A stretch of 64,000 bases of DNA from Candidatus Latescibacterota bacterium (GTDB lineage: Bacteria > Latescibacterota > UBA2968 > UBA8231), in NCBI GenBank assembly GCA_963422735.1, contig OY730476.1:800001-864000 (forward strand). The letters run 5' to 3'. The notes beneath the pieces were generated by a model. That model was not told the origin of the DNA. It searched no databases and saw only the letters and a program-made list of their open reading frames with translations. Numbering within the stretch: the first letter of the stretch is position 1; every line of letters begins with the position of its first letter. Positions 11,483-31,140 of the stretch are shown here, in pieces. The translations under genes were made by a program, and so were the position numbers.

Positions 11483-11634
11483 GCCACCGTTCCCTGGCCT
11501 GCGGGGCTGTAGGCGGCACTATACAGACTGGGTTGTCCGCTGTCGGCTTGGGCTCCGGGCGGGCGCAGATAGAGAATCCAGTGTTCGCCGGGCCAGAGGA
11601 GCGCGGCACTCCGCTCGTGCGTTTTGCGTCGCAT
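11443..11634 (-). pseudogene. Possible 3'-truncated hypothetical gene colliding with the GIY-YIG-like fragment
   Basis: 63-aa ORF with plausible composition (WPGEHWILYLR...SLYSAAYSPAGQG), downstream of the displaced groES 3' copy. Confidence 0.35.
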
Positions 11635-11675: not shown

Positions 11676-11711
11676 CTCAAGCAATATCGCGGACCAGCAT
11701 CAAGATCGCCG
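11676..11711 (-). repeat. Displaced duplicate of the groES-like gene 3' end (partner copy at 12140-12175)
   Basis: 33/36 identity; encodes AILMLVRDIA* versus AILVLVRDIA*. Confidence 0.92.
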
Positions 11712-11712
11712 A

Positions 11713-11951
11713 TTAGCGATATGCCTCGTGGCGGTGTTCCACTCGGTAGATGGTAACAACTCGCCCGCGATCATCTATGTCGTAGAGAATTCGATAGACT
11801 CCCACACGCAAGCTGTAATCCGTTCTTTCTTGAAGCCTTTTTGCAGATGTAGGAAGAGGATTTTCTGACAGGCTATCGATGTGTCTGCTCATCAAGGCGG
11901 CAGATTAGAGAGGTCTCGCATCGCCCGCCGCATGATGCGAACGCTATACAT
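11713..11951 (-). pseudogene. RelE/ParE family toxin, frameshifted
   Basis: ATG at 11951 gives MYSVRIMRRAMRDLSNLPP*, then another frame continues LMSRHIDSLSENPLP...YSLRVGVYRILYDIDD...VTIYRVEHRHEAYR*. Confidence 0.85.
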
Positions 11952-12088
11952 CCGCTCTGCCTGCTTGTAACTCTACCCCTCTGAGTCTTCAAGTTCCTCT
12001 AGCACACGTAGTCGAGCAGTACCGCTTTCTTCTTGCCACGGGAGTCCACGACAAACTGAGATCTTTTAATCATATCAGCAACGCCCAT
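11944..12088 (-). pseudogene. Antitoxin partner of the RelE toxin, broken by deletions/frameshifts
   Basis: AGGAAAGGAG RBS; MGVADMIKRSQFVVDSRGKKKAVLLDY, then out-of-frame pieces LEELEDSE and VELQAGRADV*; overlaps the toxin start. Confidence 0.75.
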
Positions 12089-12140
12089 TTCGTTCTCCTT
12101 TCCTGCATATATCCCGCAAATCTCCGGTCCCAAACGACTC

Positions 12141-12506
12141 TCAAGCAATGTCGCGGACGAGCACCAAGATCGCCGCCTGCGGCACGACGATGAACTTCTC
12201 GGCGTCGAACTTGATTTCCACCGCGTCGTTGCGCAGGAAAATGGCGTGGTCTCCCTTCTTCGCCTGGAGGCCGATATAGCGCATCTGCTCGCCCCTCTCT
12301 TGGTCCCAAGGCACGCCGTCGTCATCGGTTTTCGGCGGCAAGGGAACGCCTGGCCCTACCTCTTCGACGCGCCCGCTTTGCACATTCTCCTTTTCCAAGG
12401 CGGTCGGCGGCAAGTAAAGCCCCACGGCCGTGCGCTCTTCCATGTCGTCAACCCGGATTAGCACGCGGTCGCCGACTACATACAGTTCCTTGTCGCCCCT
12501 AATCAT
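12141..12506 (-). CDS. groES: Co-chaperonin GroES (Cpn10) family protein, no groEL adjacent
   Basis: VVGDRVLIR, mobile loop EERTAVGLYLP, GRVEEVGPG, KKGDHAIF; CAGGAGGAG RBS. Confidence 0.8.
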   Translation of the reverse strand: MIRGDKELYVVGDRVLIRVDDMEERTAVGLYLPPTALEKENVQSGRVEEVGPGVPLPPKTDDDGVPWDQERGEQMRYIGLQAKKGDHAIFLRNDAVEIKFDAEKFIVVPQAAILVLVRDIA

Positions 12507-12520
12507 CTACTCCTCCTGCG

Positions 12521-13780
12521 TTAAGACGCTAGTCGCAAACACTCGCTGTAGCGCTCGAAGCGCTCTCCTTCCCCCTCTTCTGGATCGACGTATTTGAGCC
12601 AAAGGGCACTGTCCTTCTTGTCGCCGCTGAGTTTGCGGCGGCTGCCCAGATGGCTCGGATCGACGCCGTTCCACACCACTTGGCCATCCTGCATATAGAT
12701 GAATGCCCCTCGATAGCGGTCAATTAGCTTCCGCCGTTCTTCTTCGTAGATCAGCCCCTGCTCGCAGGTGGTGCGCCGCCAGTTGGCCACTGTAGCGTCT
12801 GAGTCCGTAGATACCGAGTCAAATTCGGCAAGCGGAGCCTCGACCTCACTCGCAAAGTCGATCTCGTTCAAATCCACCGTGCCAAAGCCGTGCTCGGCAG
12901 CTATCAGCAGATGATTGCGGTCGCGGCGGAAAGGCGGGATCGGCCAATCGGAGCGGGGATCGTGGCCCATCAAAGTCATGCCGCAGGCATCGGTCGCCAC
13001 CGGATGATCGCCAGCCATCAAGGCATTGCAAATCCGGCCCTCGCCGCCCCATTCGCGTCCCCATTGGCCGGTGAGGGCCTCGACGATGTTGAGGCAGGGC
13101 TTGGTAATCATGCCCAAGTCCGGCAGGACGTAAGAAAGCCGGATTAGATGGTGGTAATACGACCGCGTCCGCCCTTCCGGCGGGATCATCGGAGGCAGGC
13201 CAAAGAGATTTTTCAGGGTCAAGGTAATGCCCATGAAGGCGTGATTTTTCATCTTGGCGATGGATACCACCTCGTCGGCCTCGGCAAAGATGGCATTGAG
13301 CAGGTAGCGGTCGAACATGCAGCCGCCACCGGGTACGTCGTACGTGGCAAAGGGAGGCAAGTTTGAGTCCACATAGCGGACGCCAAAATCGTCCAATATA
13401 TAGCGGTAGTTGAAGTCTTCGGGCGTTACATGGCCGTTGCCGTAAGGATAGGTGTCGGTGGCGACTAGCTCGGCGGTAGTCCGCTCTCGCAGCAGGCGCA
13501 GCACCGCGCGGGCCACCGCATCATCTACTAACTCCCTCCGGCGACCAGCGAAGTACTCTATGCGCTCCGGCGGCTTGATCATATTGAATTTCAATACGAT
13601 CCGCCGCGCCTTTTCCAGCTTCTTCCAAGAGCGATCTAGCGGATCGGTAGTCCGTTTGAGGACCTCGTATATTTCTTCCTCGCTCGCCCGATGGTGGCAA
13701 TGCGAGGCTCTAACCGCGTATTGTCTATCGCCCATGGCGACCTTTCCTTTCCAGTTAAATGTTTGTGGTTTACTACTCAC
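12521..13780 (-). CDS. DUF362 domain-containing protein
   Basis: IVLKFN, VVSIAKMKNH...GITLTLKNLFG, NIVEAL.G...GEG, D.VATD motifs. Confidence 0.75.
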   Translation of the reverse strand: MSSKPQTFNWKGKVAMGDRQYAVRASHCHHRASEEEIYEVLKRTTDPLDRSWKKLEKARRIVLKFNMIKPPERIEYFAGRRRELVDDAVARAVLRLLRERTTAELVATDTYPYGNGHVTPEDFNYRYILDDFGVRYVDSNLPPFATYDVPGGGCMFDRYLLNAIFAEADEVVSIAKMKNHAFMGITLTLKNLFGLPPMIPPEGRTRSYYHHLIRLSYVLPDLGMITKPCLNIVEALTGQWGREWGGEGRICNALMAGDHPVATDACGMTLMGHDPRSDWPIPPFRRDRNHLLIAAEHGFGTVDLNEIDFASEVEAPLAEFDSVSTDSDATVANWRRTTCEQGLIYEEERRKLIDRYRGAFIYMQDGQVVWNGVDPSHLGSRRKLSGDKKDSALWLKYVDPEEGEGERFERYSECLRLAS

Positions 13781-15113: not shown

Positions 15114-15343
15114 GCCGCGACATCCTCGCCTCCCACATCGGCCAGCGCAACGCCGTCGATTTCAACGCCGGGCCAAGCGTACTGCCGGCTCTTGGCGACC
15201 ATTTCCGCAAAGGCCTTGCGGCCGCTGATAATATCCAATTCCTCGCATTGTAATCCGGCTCTATCGAGTACCGCCCGCACTCCTGGGAGCCAAAGGCAAT
15301 ACGGATTGAGATATGCTTTGATTACAGGGGTAGTCTCTTCCAC
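15083..15343 (-). CDS. Glutaredoxin-like protein
   Basis: GTG after GGAAAGGA RBS; AYLNPYCLW...EMVAKSRQYAWPGVEIDG..LADVGG thioredoxin-fold pattern with a single active-site Cys. Confidence 0.7.
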   Translation of the reverse strand: MEETTPVIKAYLNPYCLWLPGVRAVLDRAGLQCEELDIISGRKAFAEMVAKSRQYAWPGVEIDGVALADVGGEDVAAWLRQRGLLC

Positions 15344-15433
15344 TTTGTCCTTTCCGATGTATAGGGGACGCGATATATTGAGAAAAACATATCGCCCGCC
15401 TCTCATCCCTGTCAAGGAAGGCATCTCTAATTC

Positions 15434-17062: not shown

Positions 17063-17073
17063 ACAAAATCAAA

Positions 17074-17121
17074 CCAAAAAAACAGGCACCTGCGATGGGT
17101 CGCAAGCACCTGTTTTTTTGG
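17074..17121. terminator. Bidirectional intrinsic terminator between convergent phyH and tRNA-Lys
   Basis: ccaaaaaaacagg..tgcga-tggg-tcgca..cctgtttttttgg hairpin flanked by A and T tracts. Confidence 0.75.
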
Positions 17122-17194
17122 TGAGCCCACTGGGGATCGAACCCAGGACCTACGGATTAAAAGTCCGGTGCTCTACCAGCTGAGCTATAGGCTC
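17119..17194 (-). tRNA. trnK: tRNA-Lys (anticodon TTT)
   Basis: GAGCCTATAGCTCAGCTGGTAGAGCACCGGACTTTTAATCCGTAGGTCCTGGGTTCGATCCCCAGTGGGCTCACCA; 76 nt, D and T loops, encoded CCA. Confidence 0.96.
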
Positions 17195-17296
17195 TATCCG
17201 CGCTGTATCTAACTCAAAATAAGCGGTTTGCGTATCCATCGCAAGGCTTTGGTCAGTGGTTAGTGGCCAGTGGTCCGTCCCGTCCCGTCCACCCAA

Positions 17297-18815
17297 TTAG
17301 TAGGCCAAAGCGATTATTTTGGTTGTTTTCTGAGTCTGCGCGTCCCCTTGCACTTCAACCCGCAAAATGTAGTTTCCCGGCGCGGCCATCTGCCCGGATT
17401 CGTCTTGGCCATCCCAACTCAACTTTGTCGGCCCGGCTGTTTGCTGCTGATCGTCCAACACTCGGACTTTCCGTCCGCTCAGGTCGTAGAGTGACACGTG
17501 CAGCAAGCGGGGCTGGAGGACGTTCAACAGGGCGAATTCTATCTGCAGCAAATCGCCGATGCCATCTCCGTTGGGGGTCACGAGCGCAGCCGACAACGCG
17601 AGCCTGTCAATTAACCCAGAGCTGACGGGCAGCGACACGGCGATCGCTTCGCTGGCATCGCCCACATCCACCCGTTGCCTTATCTGTCGCTCTCCCTGGC
17701 CGCTGGCTAAGAACGCCTCGAAGGGCATCTGTTGGCGGTATATGGTGCTGGCAAAGTCGAGTTCGATCAACCCGGCTCGGACGAATGGATCGGCAAAGGC
17801 GATGTCCAAGCCGCCATCCACTAGGGTGACCTCTGCATCCAATTAGGACTTGCCAGCGCAGCGATCCGTCCGATCCCCAGAGGATATACCAAGGGAAGTG
17901 GATGGCGTTGCGCCGGATCCAGCGCCAGTCAACGCTGCTGGGCGCAATGCCGGCCAGATCGCCCAAAATTCGCACCCGATCCACCCAGTACAGGGCACCT
18001 AAGTCAAAAGTGAATTCGGTGTCGCCCGGTTGAGAAAAACCCCAGTAGCGCCAACTCGACACGATATCGCCATCGATCAGCGCGTTGCTATTGCCCGTTG
18101 ATTCGTAGCCCTCGGCCCGCGTGCCGATTTCGTTGAGGATATCGACTTGGCCGCCGCGTTCCCGCATCCCCAGCGAGATGTTGTCCCCCACGGCCTTCAC
18201 CTCAATCGAGCTGATCCCCGCCCCTTGGGTGGGCAAGTCCACTTCAATGCGGATGAATTGCAGCGGTTTAAGGCCGTATTCGATGACCACCTCCCGCTGC
18301 TGGTTGAAGCTGTAGCGAAAGCGGTCGCTATAGCGCATAATGCTCGGCAAGGGTAGTCCGGTCGAATCAAAAAAGTGCTCGCCATTGGACAGCAGAACCT
18401 GAAAAAACTCCAACGGCGGTCCATCTTCCCTGAGCTGCAAGATCACGCGCCGCGCAGAAACGACGCGACCCAGATCGAGCTCGACGTACATGCTATCGGG
18501 ATCATCGTCCCAATCGGGGCCCCAGAAGCGGCCCGAGCTCCCGTCGATCAGATTGCCAGCATCGCCGCCGTTGGAGCCTGCGGCGCGGATGCCGCCGCCG
18601 AAATTGCCAGCATTGGCGACCGCATCGATATTGCGCCGCACGAATCTGGGGCCGGCCTTCCCGCGGCGGATTTCGATTGCGTCGCCAGGCCGCTGCCACG
18701 CATCCCAATCCGCACTGGTCCCAATCCGCAGTTCTTCGCACGTCGCGGGCGAATATATCACTCCGCAGGGCAGCAAGGCCCAAAGGGCGAGCCCCAACTT
18801 GCGTTGAGTTTTCAT
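17297..18815 (-). pseudogene. Secreted protein with discoidin-like domains and a C-terminal FlgD-Ig-like domain; frameshifted near 17843
   Basis: N-part has a signal peptide and F5/8-like motifs (LIDG, VELDLG, FDLGALYWVDRV); C-part in another frame has TPNGDG, LYDLSGRKVR, WDGQDESG, PGNYILRV. Confidence 0.7.
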
Positions 18816-18867
18816 GGTGCGACTCCCGCGCCCGGGTGTAAGTTAGCACAAACGGCTACGCAGACAA

Positions 18868-18902
18868 AAACAAGTGCCTAGGATTTTCCCCAGCACTTGT
18901 TT
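18868..18902 (-). terminator. Hairpin, possible intrinsic terminator
   Basis: 10-bp inverted repeat aaacaagtgc/gcacttgttt ending in a T-run on the minus strand. Confidence 0.45.
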
Positions 18903-18980
18903 CGCGAGTGCCGGCCACGGCCAGCACAGCCCCGCGACGCCAGCAGGCGCTTTGTTAGGAACTCTAAGGGTTAGGCGAGC

Positions 18981-19017
18981 AAAAAAGCCCCAGCTTGCCG
19001 GTAGGAGACAAGCCGGG
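18981..19017 (-). terminator. Intrinsic terminator downstream of the defence module
   Basis: Minus strand cccggcttg-loop-caagctggg-gcttttttg. Confidence 0.6.
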
Positions 19018-19040
19018 AAACGCAGGGTTGTAGTCGATGT

Positions 19041-19176
19041 TTAGGGGATGGCGTACTTGAAAACAATTTGAATCAAGACCAGCACTACGGGCACTCCGAT
19101 GCTTATCGCCTTGATCGCCATCCGCACTTCGCCCTTGAGTTCGGCAACATCCTCCTTTGTCGCCAGATACTTATGA
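19041..19176 (-). pseudogene. 5'-truncated small coiled-coil/TM protein (CCDC90/DUF1640-like)
   Basis: HKYLATKEDVAELKGEVRMAIKAISIGVPVVLVLIQIVFKYAIP*; no in-frame start codon; begins at the repeat boundary. Confidence 0.5.
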
Positions 19177-19270
19177 TGAGAAAACGCTACCTGTTCCCTA
19201 TCCCACGCGATACTTCGTCACGGCCTCCATATCAAGCTCAAAGCCCAGCCCAAGGGCGACAAAGCCATCA
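19177..19270 (-). repeat. Displaced duplicate of the 3' end of the enolase-superfamily gene (partner copy at 30115-30220)
   Basis: 66/75 identity over 19177-19251 versus 30115-30189, then a 12-nt gap and shared aagccatca; encodes DGFVALGLGFELDMEAVTKYRVG*. Confidence 0.93.
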
Positions 19271-22200
19271 CGACGAGAGATCAACGGAGTACGGCCTATT
19301 CTTGCCCTCGCAAAAATACAGGGCCTTGAATCGGTCCATTTGTTTGATTTTGTCGATCAAGACTCGTTCCTGCTGCGAGCTCGACACATTCCGTACAAGC
19401 GACTTGGCCTCCGCTTCGGTCAACCGCAAAACGAGATAGTTGGCGATGGCCGAAAATACCGAGACGTCGAAGTCCTTCGCCTCTTGCGAGGCAAGCACTA
19501 GCGAAATACCGTATTTTCGGCACTCTTTCGCCATGGTGGGAATGAGCTTTAACCCTGCGGCTCGATGCGCCTCGTCGAAAATCAAAGCGTGCGTGATTCG
19601 ATCTTGGATCCCTCGGCGGAACATGTCTTTGTAGAGACCGTAAAACACCAACGACGCAAAGGCTCGCTGAAGGTTGTCATTCTGAGTCATGTGAATCCGA
19701 ATGACGGTCGGCTGCTCGCTCTCCCACAGACTACTGTGGGACTCACGGAGATCGAAGAACCCGTAATCTTCAAGTTCTTCCAAACGCGCAAGCAGCGTCC
19801 GCAACCCGCGGTCCGGTTTTGAATCGTCGCGCAGAATCTCGACGAAGCGACTGAACGTCGGTTCCGGCAAATCCGGGGCAGCCGCGTTGGCGTTTCCCCA
19901 CCCTACCTCAACGAAGCTTTCCTTGATGGCCCCCCGAATGCGCTCGGCCTGAATGTCGCCGAGTTCTGGGTAGATGGCTGCGAAGATATCCCGCACCGCG
20001 CCCGCCACATCGAGATGCGCCATCCAAGACTCTCGATCGACCACCTCCAGCGGGTTGAAGCCCAAACCATCAAAATCGATGAACCGAACCGAATCAGCCG
20101 ACTGCCCAAGTCGCTCGTCAATATCCTGATGATAGGAAAAGACGATCGGGCGAATACCGGCTGCCATCATCTGATTGCACAGGTTCAGCAGGCAGGTAGT
20201 CTTGCCCATACCGGGCAGCCCCGCTATCAGAAGGTGAGGGTTGCCCTGTACGGTCAGTGGCCATCGAACTTCTGTGTTGGTAAAGGGATCGGTGCCGAAA
20301 CAGATCGAGGGGGCAAACACAACGGCGTCTTTCGGCTCTCCCCCGCAGGCATCCGCATTCTCAACAGCCATATTGCCGACAGTTGTTACCGTGCTTTGTT
20401 GAACGCCTAGATCGCCGTTGTGTTGATCATGTTCCTGCTTCAACGGCTCGGGAATGTGCGCGGCCATTTCAACCCGCAAGCCCGAGTCCGGCAGCAGGCC
20501 GGGACCGCATAGGAATACCTTCGTGCTCCAATTGTCCGGAGAAATTTTCAACGGATCCGCCCCGGCATACTCAGGGCAAAACACCCAGCCGCGGTCGCCG
20601 CTTTTGTCCGTGTCCAGCCTGTAGTCGCCGCCCTTTTCGATCATGCGGTCAATCTCGGCCGCGAGTTTGGTATGCCGTGCGGCCGGTAAATGGTGCCTAC
20701 GCGCCTTATCTGCATAGAAGTGCAGTACCCGGGCCAGTTTGGCACGACGAACTGCTCTGAACGCAGAGCACTCTTCATGCGAATACCAGTCGTTCCAACG
20801 CTTGCTCACCTCAGCGGTCTGCTCCTGAATGCGGCGCAGGATGTCCGGGGACCTTGCAGCGCGTAGATCCCGACGGTATTTGACCTCGACGAAGCGGAAC
20901 ATCAGTCCCTTTCCCGGTGCCGTGGTCACGTACATCAGGTCCGGCCGCACCTCCTTCTCATCGCCGTCCTCGTCCGTCAACGGCGGCAAGAGATCCCGAA
21001 CATCATCGACGGGAACGATGAAACCGCGCTCCAGCGATACCCAGCATGAATCCGTCTCCTGTGCCTGCTGGCAATTTGCCTGCGCAACGGCGAGCGCGAT
21101 CAGTTCCGAAGTCGGCGGTTTGTCTCCAGTGAGGCGAATGGCGAGCCGGCCGCTGAGGGCCTTCAGATGCTCCAAGAGGAATTCCGCGTTGCGGCGGCTA
21201 CGGCTGAGCCCCATCTGATCCAAGGCATCATCAAGTAGGACGCGTACCTCCTCCAAATTGCTGGTAGAGGTAATTAACTGTAAGCAGCCCAAGTCCTCCC
21301 GCTCTGGAACGCAGTCAATCACGTAAGCATCGTAGATTGTCCGATTGTCCCGTGGGGAATCGAAGTACTCGATGCCGGCGTTCCGGTCCAGCGTAATGAC
21401 CCAATCGCAAAGCCGATGGAGCTCCCTGAGGCCACCCTCCTTTTCCCGCGACACCTCTGTGTACAGCACCGGCAGCTTTCCACTCACGGCACCGACATGT
21501 CGCGCCACAGCATCCTGTATGGCACCCTGCAAGTCCGCCAAGCGTTTAGTATGTGCGCGGTCCGCCGGGTGCCTTTCGCCAGCTTGCGCCAGCGGGACTG
21601 TGCTGCACCATAGCGGCGCGGGCCTAGCGGCGAAGTCGCGCACGTAGAACGAGAGCAGGCCAAACGCATGGAACATCCCGTCGCTCGGCCTCTCCCGCTC
21701 GGCCAGCCTTACCTGCGACTCGAAGGTGTCAAACGCGACCGCAACGTGGGCTGCGGTCTTAGGATCAAGCTCATTCTTGCGTGCCCAGCGCAACCTCGGC
21801 ATGTTCACGCCGCCGGGCAGACTCAGGGATTCGAGCATCCATTGATCGTCAGGTGATACCGCGCCGGCACCACTGCGCCGCCGTTCCCGCGCCTCGGCGA
21901 TGAACCGCCCGGCAATTCCGCGTTGCTCCTCAGAAGGGTACATTTCCAGCGAGAAAACGGGCGCACCCCGAGATTGCTCTTCGGAAACATCCTCGTCATC
22001 GGCCCGGCGCAGGCGGTCATGGACGCGGCCCAGCGACCGGGCGATGGTCAGGCCATCTCCCGCCCGAAGGGCGTGAACGCGGAGTAGGCGGGACGTGTTG
22101 TGGCAATCCAAGTACTTGACGACCTCGTCACCGACCACCTCTGCGCTCTGTCCCCCTACTGTCGGAGCGGCGTCCATGGACTCCCCTTCCCCCAGCGCAC

Positions 22201-24256
22201 GGGCGAGAATCGCCACCGCCGCCTTGGGCTCTTTATCTGTATCGGGGACCATGCCGACCGCATGAAAGCCAAGGGTGTCTGCAAAGACAAACGATCCGCC
22301 GTCTGGATTCGGGAGAAAAGCCGGAAACATGGCACCATCCAAGCACTGGAACTCGTCTTTTACGTCTTTTGGCTTTTGACCCTGCTCAAAGGCCGCGTGG
22401 AAAACGAGATTGTCATACGCCGCATGCCACGCAACGCGCAACGGGTGCATCGGCAAGACGATGAGGCCAATCATCCGCCCAGCAAGGGACTGCACCTCTA
22501 CAGTGTTGCACCGCGCCAAGGATGGATCGCCACTCTCCAACAATGCAGTCCAAGCGCGGGTGTACCCTTTGACCGAATCAAAGGCTTTCGCCCTATCGTC
22601 ATAAACGTGCCCCACCACACCGCCGCCCTCGCGGACGCAGTCGGCTAATTTTCGGCTCGCCACGGTGGCTTTCTCCCATGTCGGCCCTTCATCCTCATGG
22701 TGAATGAACTCCACGTCTCCCGCTCGGGCACCGGACGCACGCACCTTGACGCGCCAGCGCCCAATGGCTCCGCCTCGCTCCGTCCACTGCTTTTCCACGT
22801 CGCGGAGCAGCGGCGGGCAGGGGACGCGAAAACTCAATCTTTTTGTACCCACAGATGTGCGTAACAGCACGAAATTGCTCTTCGCATCAAAGCTGAAATT
22901 CGCCGGACGGTCGGCGATGGCGGACGCGCTCTCCCGCTCATCGAGCTCGACCAACCCCTCGCTGAACGCACGGACCTTTCGGCCAGCCCCTCCAGCGGTC
23001 TTTTCGGGTGGCTCGCCAAAGCGGATGATGAACTCCTCGCTCTCTTGCGGTTCGACTGCGTCGTTCCCCACCACGGAAACCACCACTTTGGCGGAGACCA
23101 GAGAGTCTTCGTTCAGCATTGAAAAGTCATCGTTGCTGAACCGGCACTTCTCCTCTTTTCTCGCCGCGTGACTCACGTTATGCACGGATAGCTCTTCATC
23201 CACGCCGGTTACTATGGCAACGCGGTACTCTACGGCATTCTTTGCCAAATTGCCGGGTCGCGCCTTCCAGCGGACCTCCAGCTTTGAATAGTCCGACGAC
23301 GACATGGGCTCGGGCTTCAGGATCAGAACCGGTAGTTGCTGGCTGAGGTCTTCAACCAGCGATTTCACTTCGGGTTCTAATCCCGACCACTTGGCTATCG
23401 CGCCGTTCCGGTTGCGCCAAGACGTAAGTTCGATGGCTTGAATGTCATGGGCACTCTCTATCTGCAATGCGCCCACCCATAGTTTTTGCTTGTCGGCCAG
23501 TGCCGCCAACGCCGACAGCAGCGATTGGGTTTGTGCGGTGTGCAGAAAAACTTCGAGATCGCGGCGTTGCTCACCTGTCGGCTCCGCCAGCCGCAGCGAC
23601 TCAATACGCACCGGGATAGTCAGCCCAGAGGCCGCCGTTCTCAACAGGTGATCTACAAATCGGCGCGAGTAGTCCAAGACTTCTTCGTCCAAACCGGCGG
23701 ATTCGGCGACCGGCCACAGGCCGAGCAGGTAAAGATACGCGCCCGGATGCCGTTTGTGCGCTGCGATGCGGCAGAGAAAGTCGAATGCGGTCCAAGGCGA
23801 AACGCTGTACTGACTGCCGGATCCCTGCGCCTTTTTGATGGCCCGCTCGGCATATCGGCGATGGGTGCTCGACGACCGGCGCGTCCCCTCGGCACCAGCC
23901 AGTCGTCGAGCTTCCTTGAACAGGCTTGTCTCATCTACTTCCCGCGAGGCACTGTAGATGCCATCCATGCCGGCACCGGCAAGATGGGTATCCACCAGCA
24001 ACAGGGCGGCATCGCCTTTGGCTTCGCGCATCTCGACAGCTTGGTCCGCGGTAATGGTCCTCAGGTCTGTATCATCCGCATCCGCCACCCGCTGAACCTG
24101 CCAATTTGGTACGCGGAAGTTGTCGTCCGCCGCGAGCTTTGTCACCACATCCGGCGTCAGGCAGCGGACGAAGGCCATAGCCCCGGTTTCGGCTCGGCCA
24201 AGCACCTTCTCAAACGCCTGCCCGAGGATTTGCCCATGTAGTTTGCTCCATTCCAT
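19268..24256 (-). CDS. Large PD-(D/E)xK nuclease + HerA/FtsK-type ATPase (Mad8/DptH-like)
   Basis: 1662 aa; RPDLMYV...FVEVKYRR nuclease motif; Walker A GLPGMGKT, Walker B LIFDEAH, KECRKYGISLVLASQ. Confidence 0.8.
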   Translation of the reverse strand: MEWSKLHGQILGQAFEKVLGRAETGAMAFVRCLTPDVVTKLAADDNFRVPNWQVQRVADADDTDLRTITADQAVEMREAKGDAALLLVDTHLAGAGMDGIYSASREVDETSLFKEARRLAGAEGTRRSSSTHRRYAERAIKKAQGSGSQYSVSPWTAFDFLCRIAAHKRHPGAYLYLLGLWPVAESAGLDEEVLDYSRRFVDHLLRTAASGLTIPVRIESLRLAEPTGEQRRDLEVFLHTAQTQSLLSALAALADKQKLWVGALQIESAHDIQAIELTSWRNRNGAIAKWSGLEPEVKSLVEDLSQQLPVLILKPEPMSSSDYSKLEVRWKARPGNLAKNAVEYRVAIVTGVDEELSVHNVSHAARKEEKCRFSNDDFSMLNEDSLVSAKVVVSVVGNDAVEPQESEEFIIRFGEPPEKTAGGAGRKVRAFSEGLVELDERESASAIADRPANFSFDAKSNFVLLRTSVGTKRLSFRVPCPPLLRDVEKQWTERGGAIGRWRVKVRASGARAGDVEFIHHEDEGPTWEKATVASRKLADCVREGGGVVGHVYDDRAKAFDSVKGYTRAWTALLESGDPSLARCNTVEVQSLAGRMIGLIVLPMHPLRVAWHAAYDNLVFHAAFEQGQKPKDVKDEFQCLDGAMFPAFLPNPDGGSFVFADTLGFHAVGMVPDTDKEPKAAVAILARALGEGESMDAAPTVGGQSAEVVGDEVVKYLDCHNTSRLLRVHALRAGDGLTIARSLGRVHDRLRRADDEDVSEEQSRGAPVFSLEMYPSEEQRGIAGRFIAEARERRRSGAGAVSPDDQWMLESLSLPGGVNMPRLRWARKNELDPKTAAHVAVAFDTFESQVRLAERERPSDGMFHAFGLLSFYVRDFAARPAPLWCSTVPLAQAGERHPADRAHTKRLADLQGAIQDAVARHVGAVSGKLPVLYTEVSREKEGGLRELHRLCDWVITLDRNAGIEYFDSPRDNRTIYDAYVIDCVPEREDLGCLQLITSTSNLEEVRVLLDDALDQMGLSRSRRNAEFLLEHLKALSGRLAIRLTGDKPPTSELIALAVAQANCQQAQETDSCWVSLERGFIVPVDDVRDLLPPLTDEDGDEKEVRPDLMYVTTAPGKGLMFRFVEVKYRRDLRAARSPDILRRIQEQTAEVSKRWNDWYSHEECSAFRAVRRAKLARVLHFYADKARRHHLPAARHTKLAAEIDRMIEKGGDYRLDTDKSGDRGWVFCPEYAGADPLKISPDNWSTKVFLCGPGLLPDSGLRVEMAAHIPEPLKQEHDQHNGDLGVQQSTVTTVGNMAVENADACGGEPKDAVVFAPSICFGTDPFTNTEVRWPLTVQGNPHLLIAGLPGMGKTTCLLNLCNQMMAAGIRPIVFSYHQDIDERLGQSADSVRFIDFDGLGFNPLEVVDRESWMAHLDVAGAVRDIFAAIYPELGDIQAERIRGAIKESFVEVGWGNANAAAPDLPEPTFSRFVEILRDDSKPDRGLRTLLARLEELEDYGFFDLRESHSSLWESEQPTVIRIHMTQNDNLQRAFASLVFYGLYKDMFRRGIQDRITHALIFDEAHRAAGLKLIPTMAKECRKYGISLVLASQEAKDFDVSVFSAIANYLVLRLTEAEAKSLVRNVSSSQQERVLIDKIKQMDRFKALYFCEGKNRPYSVDLSS

Positions 24257-24257
24257 A

Positions 24258-26054
24258 TCAGTTCTCCATCGCCGGCTTGAAGCGAGGCTCCAGCCGCTTC
24301 ATCGCTTCCGCATCGTTGACGCCCACCAAAAGCCCTAAATCGCGCAGACGCCGCTCCAGAATCGTGCGATTCCTTTGCAGCAATTCGTTGGAGATCGTCA
24401 TCCCCGACGGGGCGGTATCCACGTGTAATCCATAGCGTTCGCGCAAGACTTCGAGAAACTCCCGGAACGAAAGAGGGCGAACGCCCGGTTTGTTGCCACT
24501 TCTCAACAAGTGCAGATGCACCAGATAGTCCAGCACCGAATCAGTGAACACTAGGGAACGAACATCGCGTTTCCGGCGCGTTGTGCTCCCACCAAGACCG
24601 CGCGTCGTCGTCCTTCTAGCGGCCAGACCGTTTGGACGACCGGTGAGCAAATTCGAGTCGAGCATCGCCATGAAGTGGCTACGAGGCCCCATTAGCACCA
24701 TCAATCCATCGGCAAGCCGCCAGACCGGGTTTTCTTGGCTGGTATCGTTAGTCAAGATTTCCGCGAATTCGGGGTAGTCGTCCGCTAGTTCCTCGGCCAG
24801 TTTGTCGGCATCGTCTTCTATCCTGTCCAAAATTCTTCGTGCTTGCGGATGGCGGTCGTGCAGCAAGTCCCCCAATAGATTCAGCCAATCCGTGGCATAA
24901 GGGCGGGTAGCAATATCCTCCCTTTTGATTCTTTTATTGTCCCGCGCCCGATAGTCCAATAGCCGCAGTACCATCAAAAGGACGGGAAAACGCTCCATAC
25001 GCCGCCTATAGTCATCCATCGACTGCTCGGCCGCGTCCCGGATGCTGCGCTCGATCCCATTAGAGCAATCCACGAACAAAGGGGCGGGTAGCTGTTCATC
25101 GCGGTGCGGGACAGTACCTGTCTCCGACCACCGCAACAACAACTCGACTGTGCTAGTAAAAATAGTCGTCAGACCAATGGCAATACAGGACTCCAGCATT
25201 TCCACCAGAGCGTATCGCGGCACTGGGTTTGCGTAGGAGCGCACAAAGCGGCGGATGTCCTCGGAGAAATTCCGCGCCACTTCCTCTGCTATGGGGCGTT
25301 GATTGGAGATTGTGCCGCCCTCCTTACCCCGCATCTTGTCCGGTGCCGTCTTGAGTTGCTGCGCGAGCCGGATCATCAACAGTTGGTCCAGTCCAACGGA
25401 GTCGTCTTCCTCCTTGAACCGATCCGATGCCAAGTCGCTCAAGACCCCTCCACGGCGGGTAACGCCTTGGCCGAAGGCACCCAACAAAACGTTCTCCTCG
25501 TACTTTTTCCCCACCGGGAACCATGTTTTTTTATCGTCGCTCTGTCCGACTAACTCGCCCTTCTGATCGGCCAGCATGGCTACGATCATTTCGGGAACGT
25601 AACGGAGGTGCGCCACTGTCTCTGGAAGATCTACCCAACTCGCCATGTAATGGGCTGGGGCGACCCGCTGGATTTGCTGGTCGCGACCGAGATTGTGCTT
25701 GATATTTTCGAGACAGAAACAGAGCAATAAATCGCCAAGGATGGCTTTCTCGGCTTCGCCCTCGAAACCGCACAACTCTACTGTACCGGAAAGCCTCTCT
25801 GCGATGCGTTCTATGGTCGCTGATTGTCTTATTCGGCTAGGCGATCCATCTTTATCGCCGAAGGTTTCTAGAAATTTTCCCTTCCCTCTCCGTTCACCGA
25901 AGCGGAACATATAGAAGACCGCGGGAAGAACCGCGGAAAGCTCAAAAATCTGTACCGAGACCGGCAATACCTTGTCGTAGTTACTGGACCAGATTTCTCG
26001 GGTCATGCCGGGGCCCAGTACGTCTTCGACGAGTTTGCGCACATTATCGGCCAT
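24258..26054 (-). CDS. Hypothetical protein, middle subunit of the defence module (Mad7/DptG-like)
   Basis: 598 aa; closely spaced with both neighbours; C-terminal wHTH-like FLEVLRERYGL...LERRLRDLGLL..VNDAE ending resembling DptG-type proteins. Confidence 0.65.
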   Translation of the reverse strand: MADNVRKLVEDVLGPGMTREIWSSNYDKVLPVSVQIFELSAVLPAVFYMFRFGERRGKGKFLETFGDKDGSPSRIRQSATIERIAERLSGTVELCGFEGEAEKAILGDLLLCFCLENIKHNLGRDQQIQRVAPAHYMASWVDLPETVAHLRYVPEMIVAMLADQKGELVGQSDDKKTWFPVGKKYEENVLLGAFGQGVTRRGGVLSDLASDRFKEEDDSVGLDQLLMIRLAQQLKTAPDKMRGKEGGTISNQRPIAEEVARNFSEDIRRFVRSYANPVPRYALVEMLESCIAIGLTTIFTSTVELLLRWSETGTVPHRDEQLPAPLFVDCSNGIERSIRDAAEQSMDDYRRRMERFPVLLMVLRLLDYRARDNKRIKREDIATRPYATDWLNLLGDLLHDRHPQARRILDRIEDDADKLAEELADDYPEFAEILTNDTSQENPVWRLADGLMVLMGPRSHFMAMLDSNLLTGRPNGLAARRTTTRGLGGSTTRRKRDVRSLVFTDSVLDYLVHLHLLRSGNKPGVRPLSFREFLEVLRERYGLHVDTAPSGMTISNELLQRNRTILERRLRDLGLLVGVNDAEAMKRLEPRFKPAMEN

Positions 26055-26061
26055 TTGTCAT

Positions 26062-29000
26062 CTACTCCTCCAGTCGCTGAATAATCATCTGTTGCTGAAC
26101 ATCGGCGCCGGCACCTTTGACGATCGCCGCAGAAACCTCGTAGATCGCCTCGTCCTGCATGTGATTCCAAGCCAACACCTTGCGGTCATCCTCGCGCACC
26201 AACCGTTGCACAAAAATCGACAAGTGGGCAAAGGTGTCATCGGTCGATACATCGCCCAACTGGTAGCCGTCGCTCAGTTCCAAAAGCAGGTGAAACAGGT
26301 CGGCACCGAGGCGGAGCCGCTCTTTACGCCCACCTCGATAGCGGTAGATCAAAAAGGCTTGGCGATGCAGCCGGTCAAGTCCTTCGGCTTCGGCTGGCAG
26401 GTCCGCTTCAAGCCGAAAGCTGGTCAGTGGCTTCTCCACCCAGAACGCGGTTTCCGTGGGCGTTCGCGGCGTGATGCGTAGCGGGACTACACCGGGGCGG
26501 TCAAGTGCTTGGGGCGGCAGACTTTCCAAACGCGCAATCCCCTCGCACAGCCTTCGGCACAGATCGTCGAGATCACCTTCGGCGCTTGGGAGATTGCTAA
26601 ACTCCCGATAATACCGCGCTTGGGCCAAGCCGAGGGCGTAAGGATCTGCGGCGAGCGCGGCGATGTCGTCTGCGGTCCATTCAAAGTAGGCCCGCCGCCG
26701 CGCTTCTTCCAGCGTCAGCCCCGGATAGTGGGGAGCACCTCCCGAGGTATCAACAGAGGGGGTTCGCAGAAGGCGTCGATCAATCTGCGGATGGGCTTCA
26801 AGGGCTGGGTCAAAGCGAATTAGCTCTTGCAACACATCTCCCTGTCGCCCCGGCGACTCCGGCGAAAAGGCGCGTTCCCAATAGGGCAACGGAGCATCCT
26901 CACCGCTGTGATAGTCGCTGCAGAAGTGAACGCCGAACAGGATATACACCAGTGCGGCCCGCAGTTCGCGGACGGTGATGTGGGTTTCGCCGCGCAGGTG
27001 AACGGCTTGCAACATCTCGAACAGTCGTTGCCGAGCGCGCTTGCGCTCATCTTCCGGGGCCATGCCGGGCAGCCCTTTGGGACCAAACCGCCGCATGGCG
27101 CGCCGGACCTCACACCGGTCTTGGGCCGAACACGTCTCGCAAGGTGCCCAAATCTGGGGGGACTTTTCTTTGCCGTAGAGGCTGTCTATCAGCTCATCGA
27201 GAAAGTCGGTTTTAATGTTTGCTTCGTCCGGCACCACGCTGCCAACAAGCGACCGTTGATTGAGGCTGATGAAGCGGATGTGCGATTCGGGCGCGGATTC
27301 CTCGCCATTGAGTAGGTTGTAGAGAGCCTGTGTCAACGGCGTTTCGGCTCTATCAATCCACTCCAAGAGACGCCCATCGTTGATCGCCAGCAGATGGACA
27401 ATGTCTTCGCCGGGCGCACCCTGTTGAAACGGCTGCAAAAATTCATCCAACAGCTCATCGGCGGAACGTCCCTGCCACGACGCCGACCCATCGAGATTCA
27501 TGCGGACAATCAGGCCATCGTCCATCGGATGCTCCAGAATGCGCTCTGAGGAATTGTGTATGCCAAACCCAAGGCGACCAGCAAGGTGCTGCAGCAACGC
27601 GGTTTTCCCGTCGCCGGCGTTGCCGCACAGGATGACGAGCCGGACTTTTCGGCACAGAATGTCGCCATACAGGGCCTCTTCGAGACGGGTTTCAACATAG
27701 GTTTGCTCGGCAAAGTTCGTGTCGAGGCCGCGTGTTTCGCTGTTTCCCCAGCGAGAGCCGGGGTAGGATTGCAGCAAGGATTGCAGCCAACGCACTTCAT
27801 TCTCACGGCGAGCGGGAGGTTCCGCTGGTGGCTCTGCGGATTCATCGGCACTTTCGGCCTCAGTGGCCGAGGGGGGACTCAAAGCGGCCTTCGCTTCATC
27901 CGCAGAAGCAAATCGCTGCTCGGGGTCGGGATCCGTCGCCTTCGCTAGGAATGCGGTGATGGTTGGATAATCCTCGCGCTCGACGCCATCCCAATTCAAG
28001 CCGCGTTCCTTGGCCCGGCTGCCATCGTACATGAACGGCTCCTTCTCGAAGAGCACCTGAAAGAAGCTCGCAGCTAACGCGAAGAAGTCGTCTGCAGGAG
28101 CGGCCGGCCGGTCTTTGGGATGTGTATGCGGGCTATATATGATGGTGCCGGGGATGACCGGCTCCCCCACCTTGGCCACGCAGTCGTAGTCCGTCAAAAC
28201 AATCTCGTCATCGGCAACGATCATGTTGCGCGGGCTGACGTCGCCATGCACCAAGCCGTTGCGATGCAGAACGTCTAATGCATCGCAAACCGTTCGCAGC
28301 CAACGCAACGCCAATGCCTCCCCCGACTCTTCGTGGAAGTCTTCGGCGAGAATCGGGAGCACACCGGCGAGCTCGCTCAAGGGTTCGCCTTCGATCCACC
28401 GCATCAAGGCAACGAAATCGTTGTCGCGCCACTCCTCCGCCGTTTCAAATATGGTCGAAAGCGCTGCCGAATCAGCGAGGTGCGAATGCGCTAAGTTGTA
28501 TGCCTGAAGGACTCGCCGACCCGTTTCTTCGTCGCTGACCACCTTGGCGACGTAGGCCCCGAGATCGCCGCCGGTCGCGCCATCGATCCGCACTACCTTG
28601 AACGTAGTTCCAACCCCGCCGGAACCGAGACGCGAAACGATTCGGTAATCCCGGCCGCGAAAGTTCACGATCTGATCTTCGGTCCAGAATCGGGCCGGTG
28701 GCGCGATGACTGCCGGCGGTTCGCCCAGCAGGTCCAACAATGAGGCGTGGAGTTTTTCCAATGTAGTTCGCGCCGCCGGATCGTCCGCCGTACCCTCGGC
28801 TAGCGCCCTGCTAGCCTCCACTTCCTGGCCGGCCTTGTCGGCCGTGTGGCCGTGTGGCCCCGTACCCTCGGCTAGCGCCCTGCTAGCCTCCACTTCTCTT
28901 CCCTCGAACAGCACGGACAGACTGGCGCACAACGAATACACATCGGATCGACGATCCGCCGCCCCAAGGCCCTGTTTGCGAATCTCGGGGGCCACCGCAA

Positions 29001-30090
29001 CATCCCACTCGTCTTCTGCCCCGCCGGAGACCGCCACTGTGACATCAGCGGGAATCCGGGCGTACTGGAAACCTGTCAAAATCGGCGTGTTGTCGTGTTT
29101 GACGAGAATCGTGCCCGGCGCAAGGTTCCGGTGCAGCATGGGTTCCTCGCCCTCACCCGGTTCGTGCAACTTCGTCAATGCTTCTACTGCTTGCCGAGCG
29201 AAGTCTAGTCGCGCCTTCGCATCCCACGTATCGTCGGTGGCGCGGTGCTCAACGCTAGGAGCCGCCGGGTCTGCGACCGTGAAGAACCACATCTCGCCAG
29301 CATACCCCGGTGCCTCTTGGAATGAATCGACAATGCGCGGTGCCCAAGCGCGAAGTTGCAACCGGTGCAGCGCGTCAAATTCCCTCCGCACCCTCGCCTC
29401 TAGGTCCCGCTGTTCGGTTGCCGACACGTCATAGAGGTGCAGCAGCACGGGATCTCGACGGGTGGAATGCACACCCTTGTAGATTCGATGCAATCGCTCG
29501 TCCGTAGGCGTCTGGAGCGTCAGATTGACATAGCCAGCCAATCGTCTCAGCGCACCGTCCACAGCCACACTGGCCTTCGGGTACAAAGCTTTGCCCAGCA
29601 TTTTGACTTGCGACGGCGATAGGAACTCTGGCGCATCCAGTGCCAAGGCACCTTGCCAAGTTTTCAATGTGTGGAACCGAACGCCGCGAACTTCCCGTCC
29701 CTCAAGCGGCTTGACTTTCGCCGCATCCTGCGTGACCAAAAACACCCCATCCACCCGGCCGAGATCCGAGATCATCCGGCGCAAAGTGGTGCCGACCTTG
29801 CGCGCCTTGTCCGTTACGCGCTCGGCTTCGCGTTCCACAAGTTCGTCGTTCCGCTTCACCCAAGCCGCGTTCCAGTGTTTGACCTCAATGACCCGAACTC
29901 CAGGCGGGCCAATGGCGACAATGTCGATTTCGTCTGATTGGCGACGATGGGTGGTGGAAAACGCGAGATTCGTCAGCAGCAACCACTCGCCATCACCTGG
30001 TTCGGCTATCAGACGAGTCTTGAGTTGGGCAATAGCCTTGCGCTCGCTCTCGTTGACGGCTGGCCCACAGCTAATAGAGGTTACTTTCAT
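26062..30090 (-). CDS. NERD nuclease + pseudokinase + Ser/Thr kinase + P-loop ATPase fusion (Mad6-like; ATPase DptF-like)
   Basis: EIDIVAIG...IEVKHW (NERD); kinase 1 HRNLAPGTIL/LTGF (degenerate); kinase 2 LGSGGVG, VAKV, HGDVSPRN, LTDYD; CGNAGDGKT Walker A and LLAINDGRL. Confidence 0.85.
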   Translation of the reverse strand: MKVTSISCGPAVNESERKAIAQLKTRLIAEPGDGEWLLLTNLAFSTTHRRQSDEIDIVAIGPPGVRVIEVKHWNAAWVKRNDELVEREAERVTDKARKVGTTLRRMISDLGRVDGVFLVTQDAAKVKPLEGREVRGVRFHTLKTWQGALALDAPEFLSPSQVKMLGKALYPKASVAVDGALRRLAGYVNLTLQTPTDERLHRIYKGVHSTRRDPVLLHLYDVSATEQRDLEARVRREFDALHRLQLRAWAPRIVDSFQEAPGYAGEMWFFTVADPAAPSVEHRATDDTWDAKARLDFARQAVEALTKLHEPGEGEEPMLHRNLAPGTILVKHDNTPILTGFQYARIPADVTVAVSGGAEDEWDVAVAPEIRKQGLGAADRRSDVYSLCASLSVLFEGREVEASRALAEGTGPHGHTADKAGQEVEASRALAEGTADDPAARTTLEKLHASLLDLLGEPPAVIAPPARFWTEDQIVNFRGRDYRIVSRLGSGGVGTTFKVVRIDGATGGDLGAYVAKVVSDEETGRRVLQAYNLAHSHLADSAALSTIFETAEEWRDNDFVALMRWIEGEPLSELAGVLPILAEDFHEESGEALALRWLRTVCDALDVLHRNGLVHGDVSPRNMIVADDEIVLTDYDCVAKVGEPVIPGTIIYSPHTHPKDRPAAPADDFFALAASFFQVLFEKEPFMYDGSRAKERGLNWDGVEREDYPTITAFLAKATDPDPEQRFASADEAKAALSPPSATEAESADESAEPPAEPPARRENEVRWLQSLLQSYPGSRWGNSETRGLDTNFAEQTYVETRLEEALYGDILCRKVRLVILCGNAGDGKTALLQHLAGRLGFGIHNSSERILEHPMDDGLIVRMNLDGSASWQGRSADELLDEFLQPFQQGAPGEDIVHLLAINDGRLLEWIDRAETPLTQALYNLLNGEESAPESHIRFISLNQRSLVGSVVPDEANIKTDFLDELIDSLYGKEKSPQIWAPCETCSAQDRCEVRRAMRRFGPKGLPGMAPEDERKRARQRLFEMLQAVHLRGETHITVRELRAALVYILFGVHFCSDYHSGEDAPLPYWERAFSPESPGRQGDVLQELIRFDPALEAHPQIDRRLLRTPSVDTSGGAPHYPGLTLEEARRRAYFEWTADDIAALAADPYALGLAQARYYREFSNLPSAEGDLDDLCRRLCEGIARLESLPPQALDRPGVVPLRITPRTPTETAFWVEKPLTSFRLEADLPAEAEGLDRLHRQAFLIYRYRGGRKERLRLGADLFHLLLELSDGYQLGDVSTDDTFAHLSIFVQRLVREDDRKVLAWNHMQDEAIYEVSAAIVKGAGADVQQQMIIQRLEE
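28788..28896. repeat. Perfect 37-bp direct repeat around a 35-bp insert, in frame inside the kinase gene
   Basis: ccgtaccctcggctagcgccctgctagcctccacttc at 28788-28824 and 28860-28896; protein EVEASRALAEGT twice. Confidence 0.93.
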
Positions 30091-30135
30091 CCGTTGTCGC
30101 CTTCCATGAGCATTTGAGAAAACGCTAGCTTTTTC

Positions 30136-31140
30136 CTACCTCACGCGATACTTCTCCACGGCCTCCATATCCAGCTCAACGCCCAGCCCGGGTGCGTCCG
30201 GCACAACGACGAAGCCATCAACCGGCGTCAGCGCACCGCCGATTAGGTCGTCCTCGCGGGTGAAGTGCAGGCTGTCGGAAGGGATGGTGGCATTGGGAAT
30301 GGTTGCGTGGACATGCGTGCCATACGCGCCCGACACGCCTAACCCCAACCCCACGACCTGCAACCAAACCGGCATCCCGGCCGCTGCAGCCATGCCGGCG
30401 CATAGCTGTGCGCTCTCGACGGTGCCGCCCAAATTGAAGCAATCGGCCGCCTCGGCGCGGATCGCGCTCATCACTATCTGCGGATTGCCTAAATGGGGCG
30501 CGAGCCGAATGCGGGTGTGACGGCGAAAGTCGCGATACTGATGCCAGCCCGGCAAGTATTGGAAGGGATCCTCAAATGCCTCGATGTGATACGGCTCTAA
30601 TGACTCGGCCAGTCGCAGACTGGTACTCAAATCGCCGAAGGTGAAATTCGGATCGACGATAATGCCGTAGTCCGGGCCGGCGGCTTTGGTCATCAGCTTG
30701 ACGGTCTCGACGAGGTTCCAAGGCCGCGCCTTGAGTTTGTGGGTCTTAAACCCTCGCTTGGCCCCTTCCTCGGCCATAGCGGCGAATTCGCGCGGCTCCA
30801 GCGGCGGCGACCACCAGCCCACCGGCACTTGGTCCCAGTGCTTGGATCCCATCAGCTTCCAAGCCGGCACCCCGAGGGCCTTGCCGACGATGTCGTACAG
30901 GGCCATGATCATCGCCCCTCCTTTATCGCCCAAGTTGACCTGCATGGGATCGACGCCGATCCACTCGGCCTCCAAGCTCGATCCGCCGCGCCCCCCTTCA
31001 CCCACCCCGCAGATGCCCTCGTCGGTATGCACTTTGATCAGGCTGATGGGCCGTTCCAAGTAATCTCCGGGACGACTCTTTTCAATTGAGGGGATATGCG
31101 GCACCGCGGTGACAAACTCTTCGAGCTGGGTGATTTTCAC
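30136..31140 (-). CDS. Mandelate racemase/muconate lactonizing enzyme family protein
   Basis: GTG start at 31140 after AAGGAGG, coupled to the upstream stop; ALYDIVGK, KLK, VDPN, FEDP, PGLGVELD. Confidence 0.88.
   Translation of the reverse strand: MKITQLEEFVTAVPHIPSIEKSRPGDYLERPISLIKVHTDEGICGVGEGGRGGSSLEAEWIGVDPMQVNLGDKGGAMIMALYDIVGKALGVPAWKLMGSKHWDQVPVGWWSPPLEPREFAAMAEEGAKRGFKTHKLKARPWNLVETVKLMTKAAGPDYGIIVDPNFTFGDLSTSLRLAESLEPYHIEAFEDPFQYLPGWHQYRDFRRHTRIRLAPHLGNPQIVMSAIRAEAADCFNLGGTVESAQLCAGMAAAAGMPVWLQVVGLGLGVSGAYGTHVHATIPNATIPSDSLHFTREDDLIGGALTPVDGFVVVPDAPGLGVELDMEAVEKYRVR

Follow-up and report, generated by a model that had tools for sequence, protein, structure and literature searches.

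What leaves a second copy of a gene's last codons, stop codon included, on the far side of unrelated DNA downstream of that gene? The question arises twice in the 64,000-nt stretch studied here (the window; G000:C1:800001-864000, where G000 is the 4.95-Mb source genome, from a Candidatus Latescibacterota bacterium, and G001 and higher numbers label relatives). A reading of the window from its letters alone, called here the sequence-only reading, had noticed that two accessory cargos, a toxin-antitoxin pair and a defense module, are each followed by a diverged copy of the host gene end, and had proposed that one trans-acting or homology-driven mechanism inserts bare open reading frame (ORF) cassettes at gene ends, much like an integron without attC sites. 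Both duplications were confirmed (33/36 identical positions in case 1, 85% identity over 82 nt in case 2), and the pattern recurs at about 15 loci of the genome, so that one outcome named in advance as refuting the proposal, a genome with just these two examples, did not occur. We give a probability of about 50% to the reading that the displaced copies are recombination scars and not the sites of a dedicated cassette system; the gene-end leftovers most likely mark ordinary recombination at crowded gene junctions.

Case 1 consists of the following features (window coordinates):

12141-12506, minus strand: host gene 1, Cpn10/GroES family, 121 aa (Pfam PF00166, E = 1.8e-12)
12140-12175, minus strand: proximal repeat, the last 36 nt of host gene 1 (repeat search, sequence)
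11999-12088, minus strand: antitoxin stub, 29 aa (ORF list and relatives; no Pfam match)
11713-11895, minus strand: ParE/RelE-family toxin remnant, 60 aa (Pfam PF05016, E = 1.4e-7)
11676-11711, minus strand: distal copy, the last 11 codons and stop of host gene 1 (33/36 identical)
11443-11634, minus strand: native downstream small gene with conserved element, 63 aa (comparison with relatives)

The host protein ends in ...AAILVLVRDIA*. The distal copy, with 3 mismatches in 36 nt, is the sole such match genome-wide (BLAST, E = 1.4e-6). The TAA of the ParE remnant ends 1 nt short of it, and next to it comes the native downstream spacer in diverged form. The cargo had been described as a RelE toxin-antitoxin pair, but the pair is not whole: the antitoxin is cut to 29 aa, and the ParE remnant, which has lost its N terminus, covers positions 34 to 89 of the 89 in the Pfam profile. 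In G003 the pair is intact (antitoxin, 68 aa; ParE, 83 aa). Compared with it, the G000 ParE lacks about 23 N-terminal residues, and the G000 antitoxin corresponds to the N-terminal part of the 68-aa protein. Because the G003 orthologues are intact, we read the G000 pair as a degenerate remnant, not an intact type II module. Close by, downstream of the cox operon, a small plus-strand ORF (11258-11482) contains a perfect 24-nt tandem duplication at 11336-11383 (TTTTCGCTGATGAACTTTTACCGT, twice).

Case 2 is larger:

30136-31365, minus strand: host gene 2, mandelate racemase/muconate lactonizing enzyme (MR/MLE), enolase superfamily (Pfam PF13378, E = 3.4e-33)
30115-30220, minus strand: proximal repeat of the host gene 2 end, including a 21-nt imperfect palindrome (30115-30135) after the stop
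26062-30090, minus strand: cargo gene 1, 1342 aa, NERD nuclease-like and protein kinase domains and an SspF-like region (Pfam; PADLOC MkoA, PD-T4-6, SspF)
24258-26054, minus strand: cargo gene 2, 598 aa, mad7/SspG-like (PADLOC mad7, E = 3.7e-14; no Pfam match)
19268-24256, minus strand: cargo gene 3, 1662 aa, DndH/mad8/HerA-like C-terminal ATPase (PADLOC DndH, E = 4.6e-23; Pfam nSTAND3)
19177-19270, minus strand: distal copy of the host gene 2 end, with a 12-nt in-frame gap, the stop, and the palindrome copy (19177-19197)
18842-19176, minus strand: right-end module, 335 nt, with small ORF(s) and a 12-pair terminator at 18988-19018 (comparison with relatives)
17607-18815, minus strand: native downstream gene, F5/8 type C domain (Pfam)

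The copy is the unique genome-wide match of the host gene 2 end (E = 1.5e-15), with 82 nt at 85% identity ungapped and homology then continuing across the 12-nt gap. The last codons and the stop are repeated as first described, but the repeat runs a further 21 nt past the stop codon, into the palindrome, which with up to 3 mismatches occurs only at 819177 and 830115 (genome coordinates). The TGA of cargo gene 3 (19268-19270) falls within the distal copy, and cargo and copy are joined at the microhomology TGATG. The cargo consists of three co-oriented genes that match F, G, and H components, a DndFGH/SspFGH-like defense module; the matches are modest and partial, and "like" does not mean equivalog. 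Cargo gene 1 also holds a perfect 37-nt direct repeat (28788-28824 and 28860-28896, 72 nt apart, an in-frame 24-codon period), which may be a recent internal duplication.

We searched for further gene-end copies in G000 only. The gene set comprised 4,139 ORF-based genes from a home-made caller with a codon-usage score. Each query, 70 nt of coding sequence plus 25 nt, was searched against the genome for matches up to 30 kb away, with start and mid-gene windows as controls. Same-strand matches of at least 38 bits lay downstream for 78 genes and upstream for 52, and opposite-strand matches of that score were rare (6 and 5 genes). With long paralogue-like homology removed, a short orphan 3'-end copy remained downstream in 33 genes and upstream in 7. 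Under a second filter set, gene ends had 33 downstream and 16 upstream, whereas the numbers were 12 and 14 with gene starts as queries and 3 and 5 with mid-gene windows; the mirror image, 5'-end duplicates upstream of genes, was considered and shows no excess (14 vs 12). After inspection of alignments and ORFs, about 15 loci had the order host end, cargo, end copy:

Case 1: Cpn10-like host; copy 36 nt; decayed ParE pair
Case 2: MR/MLE host; copy about 100 nt; defense module
A: MR/MLE host; copy 160 nt; Gp49/HigB-like toxin and HTH antitoxin
B: sulfatase-like host; copy 24 nt; 0.38 kb including an opposite-strand fragment
C: WelO5-like host; copy 69 nt; 4.8 kb including an opposite-strand PQQ dehydrogenase
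D: unknown host; copy 41 nt, identical; repeated gene module
E: FG-GAP protein host; two copies; unknown genes
F: GMC oxidoreductase host; copy 45 nt; UPF0175 antitoxin and PIN-like gene with an in-frame stop
I: ABC ATPase host; copy 42 nt; three opposite-strand metabolic genes
J: ceramidase-like host; copy 45 nt; 83-aa coiled-coil ORF
K: T9SS-type protein host; copy 27-32 nt; 99-aa coiled-coil/membrane ORF
L: DUF6785 host; copy 114 nt; MNT/HEPN pair
M: 2-hydroxyacid dehydrogenase host; copy 80 nt; 27.6 kb of housekeeping-like genes
N: PhyH-family host; copy 38 nt; 2.7 kb, mixed orientation
O: unknown host; split copy; three genes

Chance was rejected as a source of these copies: each is the best non-self match in the genome (E from 1.6e-21 to 5e-3), with about 0.06 expected within 30 kb downstream. 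Repeats are present also in a phage-like region (H), where they reach well beyond the stop codon. Two near-identical segments of several kilobases in a phage-tail-like region (G000:C1 ~2785000-2788400 and 2813900-2817300, 28,760 nt apart; alignment scores 456 to 500 of 500) appear to be a large recent segmental duplication.

Do the loci belong to one system? They are not of one common origin; the cargo is mixed (housekeeping-like, opposite-strand, 27.6 kb long at M), and the ends share no motif. Toxin-antitoxin or defense genes make up the cargo at 5/15 loci. Cargo is wholly co-oriented with the host at 10/15 and of opposite or mixed orientation at the other five, which does not agree with bare ORF cassettes as the unit of insertion. 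The co-oriented cargos would sit inside host transcription units, as had been proposed. Within either window cargo, a consensus scan found no promoter-like site on the cargo strand and only weak terminator-like matches of 5 to 6 bp, in line with the sequence-only reading; totals were at shuffle level (terminator-like, 23 vs 20.0 ± 5.2; promoter-like, 6 vs 5.6 ± 2.7), and the 12-pair terminator lies past the case 2 copy. The cargo stop codon does abut or overlap the copy in both cases, but this is genome background: co-oriented genes in G000 are separated by a median of 24 nt, 37.6% of the spacers do not exceed 9 nt, and five of nine cargo ends lie that close to the copy (P = 0.22). We therefore rejected any special meaning of abutting cargo stops, or of insertions placed immediately after the host stop codon.

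A dedicated, so far unknown system that puts promoterless ORF cassettes at gene ends would explain the recurrence, its downstream direction, and the five toxin-antitoxin or defense cargos, and loci E and O, with two copies each, look like arrays. Yet no motif shared among cassette ends was seen by eye at the junctions of the ~15 loci, and no associated gene was found; opposite-strand metabolic genes and a 27.6-kb block of housekeeping-like genes are among the cargo; the tight stop-codon junctions are what the genome has anyway; and the two "copies" at O are a single displaced copy that a later insertion has cut in two, which makes a gene-end stub neutral ground for new DNA. We consider such a system very improbable. 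Integron cassettes resemble the co-oriented cargos in being promoterless, tightly packed ORFs read from upstream and often toxin-antitoxin genes. The likeness proposed earlier stops there: IntI, attI, attC, and a common recombination site are all missing, and the targets are many different genes. No attC-like site was found; an Rfam gathering scan of 10500-32500 gave only a tRNA, with no dedicated attC model run. The tRNA gene (17122-17194, minus strand, 71 bits) lies between the two cassette loci, is followed directly by a 20-pair terminator-like hairpin (17074-17121, minus strand), and has no island attached to it.

Seven of the loci (case 1, case 2, A, F, J, L, and M) were compared with relatives, 30 of which were searched for each locus. 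The relatives are ~85 to 93% identical to G000 in the flanking genes and are different species. Locus J is empty in 5 aligned relatives and, by overlapping matches, in most others. In G000, the cargo ORF is followed by the 45-nt gene end and then by the exact empty-site junction with the next gene's ribosome-binding site: the junction reads x3'-TAG-CTTAC-AATAGGAGG-ATG in G000 and TAG-C(T/G)TAC-AACAGGAGG-ATG in the 5 aligned empty relatives. G018 and G036 have cargo at the same left junction without a copy, and TAG-CTTAC|GGCGTC is common to G000 and these two filled alleles. The cargo gene in G036 (L130) has a 42-nt (14-codon) tandem repeat array that is expanded compared with G000.

Locus F has cassette and copy in common in G000, G033, G011, and G013; the copy is ~66 nt in the relatives, with an additional 16-nt loss in G000. 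In G011, the DNA past the copy is the same as that past the gene in the empty G001 and G041, and eight further genomes form a graded series of toxin deletions with the antitoxin retained. Locus M is empty in G037, G003, and G005, and relatives hold differing parts of the 27.6-kb block. In G001, the part is 6.3 kb long and comes with a 40-nt copy in another downstream background; in both G000 and G001 the distal copy is joined to an intact empty-site junction. The left boundary of the copy varies among genomes (28 to 66 nt at F; 40 vs 80 nt at M). At locus A, two convergent stop codons lie only 5 to 10 nt apart in empty sites; the toxin-antitoxin pair is present in G037 with no detectable copy, and four genomes keep partial cassette remnants, mostly antitoxin.

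At case 2, the site is empty in eight genus members (four by alignment, four by adjacent matches), and the ATG of the next gene lies ~30 nt past the host stop. The island is present in G006 and G018 (88% and 81% identity) without a gene-end copy, and in G006 the cargo TGA overlaps the ATG of the next gene. The G000 left junction is the same as in these two filled alleles. In G002, the island is internally deleted, the junction of cargo end and copy is that of G000, and the copy runs straight into the empty-site spacer, so that one junction stands in two differing downstream backgrounds. The right-end module is missing from empty sites, and a 78-nt piece of it was found in G018. The repeat homology extends across the island left end (21 nt) as far as the point of divergence between cargo and right-end module, the pattern expected if a circle of gene end, palindrome, and cargo had crossed into an allele with only the palindrome and the right-end module. 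In G026, from another family, a 79% identical defense island (L024, G026:C1:4738000-4757900), which indicates transfer between families, adjoins a frameshifted IS1595-family transposase and an Eco57I-like N6-methylase; that island was checked for repeats and integrase and has no flanking direct repeat.

At case 1, both anchors were found on one locus in 17 relatives. The site is empty in eight, with 49 to 50 nt from the host stop to the conserved small gene. Four (G001, G002, G033, and G038) have a PIN cassette 6 nt past the stop without a duplicate, three have antitoxin remnants alone, and G003 is the only relative with the ParE cassette and a copy (34 nt). The G000 cassette has its leader and antitoxin start in common with the PIN cassette. 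The site thus hosts two toxin-antitoxin cassettes with one antitoxin N-terminal domain, followed by a short tail and ParE or by a longer tail and PIN, an arrangement that looks like a modular antitoxin swap. In G041, a separate 53-nt orphan Cpn10 gene end (G041:C1:6338889-6338942) lies ~3 kb downstream, past the conserved small gene, and is probably another scar at this hotspot.

Two regularities emerge. At four sites, namely, J, F (G011), M (G000 and G001), and case 2 (G002), an intact empty-site junction lies behind the distal copy, and case 1 approximates this pattern; the left junction matches filled alleles without a duplicate at case 2 (G006 and G018) and J (G018 and G036). An undisturbed empty-site junction together with a filled-allele left junction implies that a filled allele supplied DNA to an empty chromosome and that the homologous gene end was duplicated on entry. 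The data fit an integration that went through a single crossover (Campbell type) or was homologous on one side, with deletion later; the intermediate (circular or one-sided), the order of events, and a dependence on homologous recombination are inferred. In a compact genome, short spacers after conserved genes would be the only tolerated insertion points. Accessory DNA sitting after a gene in one lineage would reach a relative's empty chromosome and integrate with the conserved gene end as its sole homology, either by a single crossover with a circularized fragment or by homologous joining at one end and illegitimate joining at the opposite end. Either event would duplicate the homologous segment, the proximal copy completing the host gene and the distal copy keeping the untouched native downstream junction, which would preserve both the C terminus of the host protein and the upstream context of the next gene. 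Later deletion would trim toxins, cargo, and the copy itself, and the copy may offer neutral landing ground for further insertions. The homology-driven half of the sequence-only proposal is plausible, though unproven, and fits the junctions; a single dedicated mechanism does not fit the mixed origins, cargo, and orientations. Also at odds with such a mechanism, cargo occupies the same site without a duplicate in G006 and G018 (case 2), in G036 (J), and as the PIN cassette (case 1).

Could a tyrosine integrase have inserted at the gene ends, the element supplying a replacement end, and since been lost or acted in trans? The anatomy is the same, with a displaced 3' end before native DNA and with relatives in which the site is empty. 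Prophage e14 and phage 21 integrate into the 3' end of icd in Escherichia coli and displace an icd 3' pseudogene. Their layout of element-borne 3' end, cargo, diverged displaced end with stop, and native DNA is the one seen here. They encode their own integrase and use a fixed core, whereas the present loci, with gene-end repeats and empty sites, have no integrase, no identical core in common, no element-end motif, and variable boundaries. The 50 predicted window proteins scanned (small ORFs and the two ends of the window left out) gave no match to a recombinase or transposase family, as the sequence-only reading had reported. A whole-genome PF00589 search placed four tyrosine recombinases in G000 (742, 2735, 3424, and 4366 kb), none of them in the window or within 35 kb of any locus, and no serine recombinase was found in the genome. 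Two of the four are not Xer-sized (425 and 412 aa), a point in favor of this explanation, but one or two integrases could not recognize ~15 unrelated targets without a common core. No integrase lies in or beside the ~15 loci or in the examined relatives' versions, some of which are too small for one; a 0.36-kb cargo would demand precise integrase loss every time. The shifting left boundaries at F and M, and the same cargo at the same site without repeats in some relatives, also speak against an integrase, and we consider this explanation distinctly unlikely. A transposase target-site duplication was rejected as well (lengths vary from 22 to 160 nt, and no transposase was found), as was a diversity-generating retroelement (by eye, mismatches are not adenine specific, and no reverse transcriptase was seen in the window).

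The main rival to recombination scars is tandem duplication, of gene end through cargo or of a whole paralogue, with later loss of the second copy down to a 3' stub. At locus L it evidently happened: many relatives (e.g., G005, G001, and G035) have two tandem DUF6785 genes, the G000 copy aligns with the end of the second, and 15 of the 26 mismatches lie at third codon positions, so that this copy reads as a decayed paralogue stub, an outcome that the sequence-only reading had listed as counting against it. Duplication is probable at D, which has a repeated gene module, and at E, where E2 has 320 nt of homology with 11/16 mismatches at third positions and a second, diverged cargo start comes after the E1 copy. 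Case 2 offers some support too: its copy includes 21 nt of the island left end, as a tandem duplicate would, and TGATG fits microhomology-mediated duplication. These loci are a minority. No second full-length host gene was found at case 1, case 2, F, M, A, or J in the 30 relatives each, and random deletion would rarely restore the exact empty-site junction that stands behind the copy at J, F (G011), M, and case 2 (G002). Over 963 nt of copies, mismatches at codon positions 1, 2, and 3 number 47, 38, and 73, and only E2, L, and N have a strong third-position bias. Most distal copies thus resemble DNA in neutral decay, and a few resemble former coding alleles. As a general account, tandem duplication is possible but unlikely.

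Several points weigh against recombination scars, the locus L stub among them. At M, the cargo (27.6 kb) and its flanks are equally conserved and subsets of the cargo are present in relatives, and an ancient rearrangement with differential loss fits equally well. Homology is short at several loci (22 to 45 nt), near or below the length for efficient RecA-type recombination. Neither a circular junction nor a tandem intermediate nor a recent event was seen; since the relatives are ~90% identical species, all events are old and their order is inferred. Empty sites could have arisen secondarily, by recombination between the two copies. The third-position enrichment is moderate, and an origin as two functional alleles is neither proven nor excluded by it. 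Finally, the locus list was picked by eye from home-made ORF calls, with rough starts and a few genes missed.

Recombination scars have close parallels among known processes. In Campbell-type insertion-duplication, as in suicide-plasmid integration, two direct copies of the homologous segment likewise flank the insert; if the segment holds a gene end, the first copy is complete and the second is a 3' stub before native DNA, with no need for a site-specific recombinase. Unlike in the laboratory cases, homology here is mostly shorter (22 to 160 nt), the donor would be a natural filled allele of a related species, and the loci have been reshaped by later deletions. In E. coli given DNA with one homologous segment, 56/60 recombinants gave a duplication-diagnostic PCR product, and duplications of 109 to 950 bp were confirmed in 14 sequenced recombinants; the authors attribute them to a single crossover of a recircularized molecule, and they outnumbered true one-sided illegitimate events (PMC3240628). 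A double crossover in both flanks leaves no duplicate, which is the state of most relatives here. Integrase-free islets, as described in excerpt (PMC13617665), are similar in that toxin-antitoxin or defense genes lie between conserved genes without mobile-element genes, cargo differs at one site across genomes, and toxins erode first. Islets of toxin-antitoxin genes only are ascribed there to homologous recombination at flanking core genes and then erosion, and the antitoxin-only remnants in our relatives match the erosion described; duplicated gene ends, present here, go unmentioned in that excerpt. In the literature searched, no description of integrase-free gene-end duplicates as a recurrent signature was found.

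A stronger version of the homology route, which we hold as tentative and rather doubtful, treats the gene 3' end as a reusable, homology-only landing pad. Tandem duplications or microhomology loop-outs would release circles of gene end and cargo, and these would re-enter empty sites in related species by short-homology single crossover, stacking cargo and pads. If so, the genus would have an integrase-free, integron-like means of spreading toxin-antitoxin and defense islets inside host operons.

Many defense and toxin-antitoxin islets lie between core genes without mobility genes, and their arrival route is largely a matter of assumption. An orphan duplicate of a gene end, backed by an intact empty-site junction, is a footprint that can be read and that a gene-end search can look for in any genome; it tells single-crossover or one-sided integration from a clean double crossover. 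G000 is small beside its genus relatives (4.95 Mb against 4.2 to 7.3 Mb, mostly 5 to 7 Mb) and has extra deletions of its own at several loci, which suggests that the genome is shrinking, a process by which many gene stubs would be left behind. Were the footprint peculiar to this compact, apparently shrinking genome, it would mainly document deletion-shaped hotspots; if it is common, it would provide a means to count integrase-free acquisitions and to identify donor and recipient alleles.

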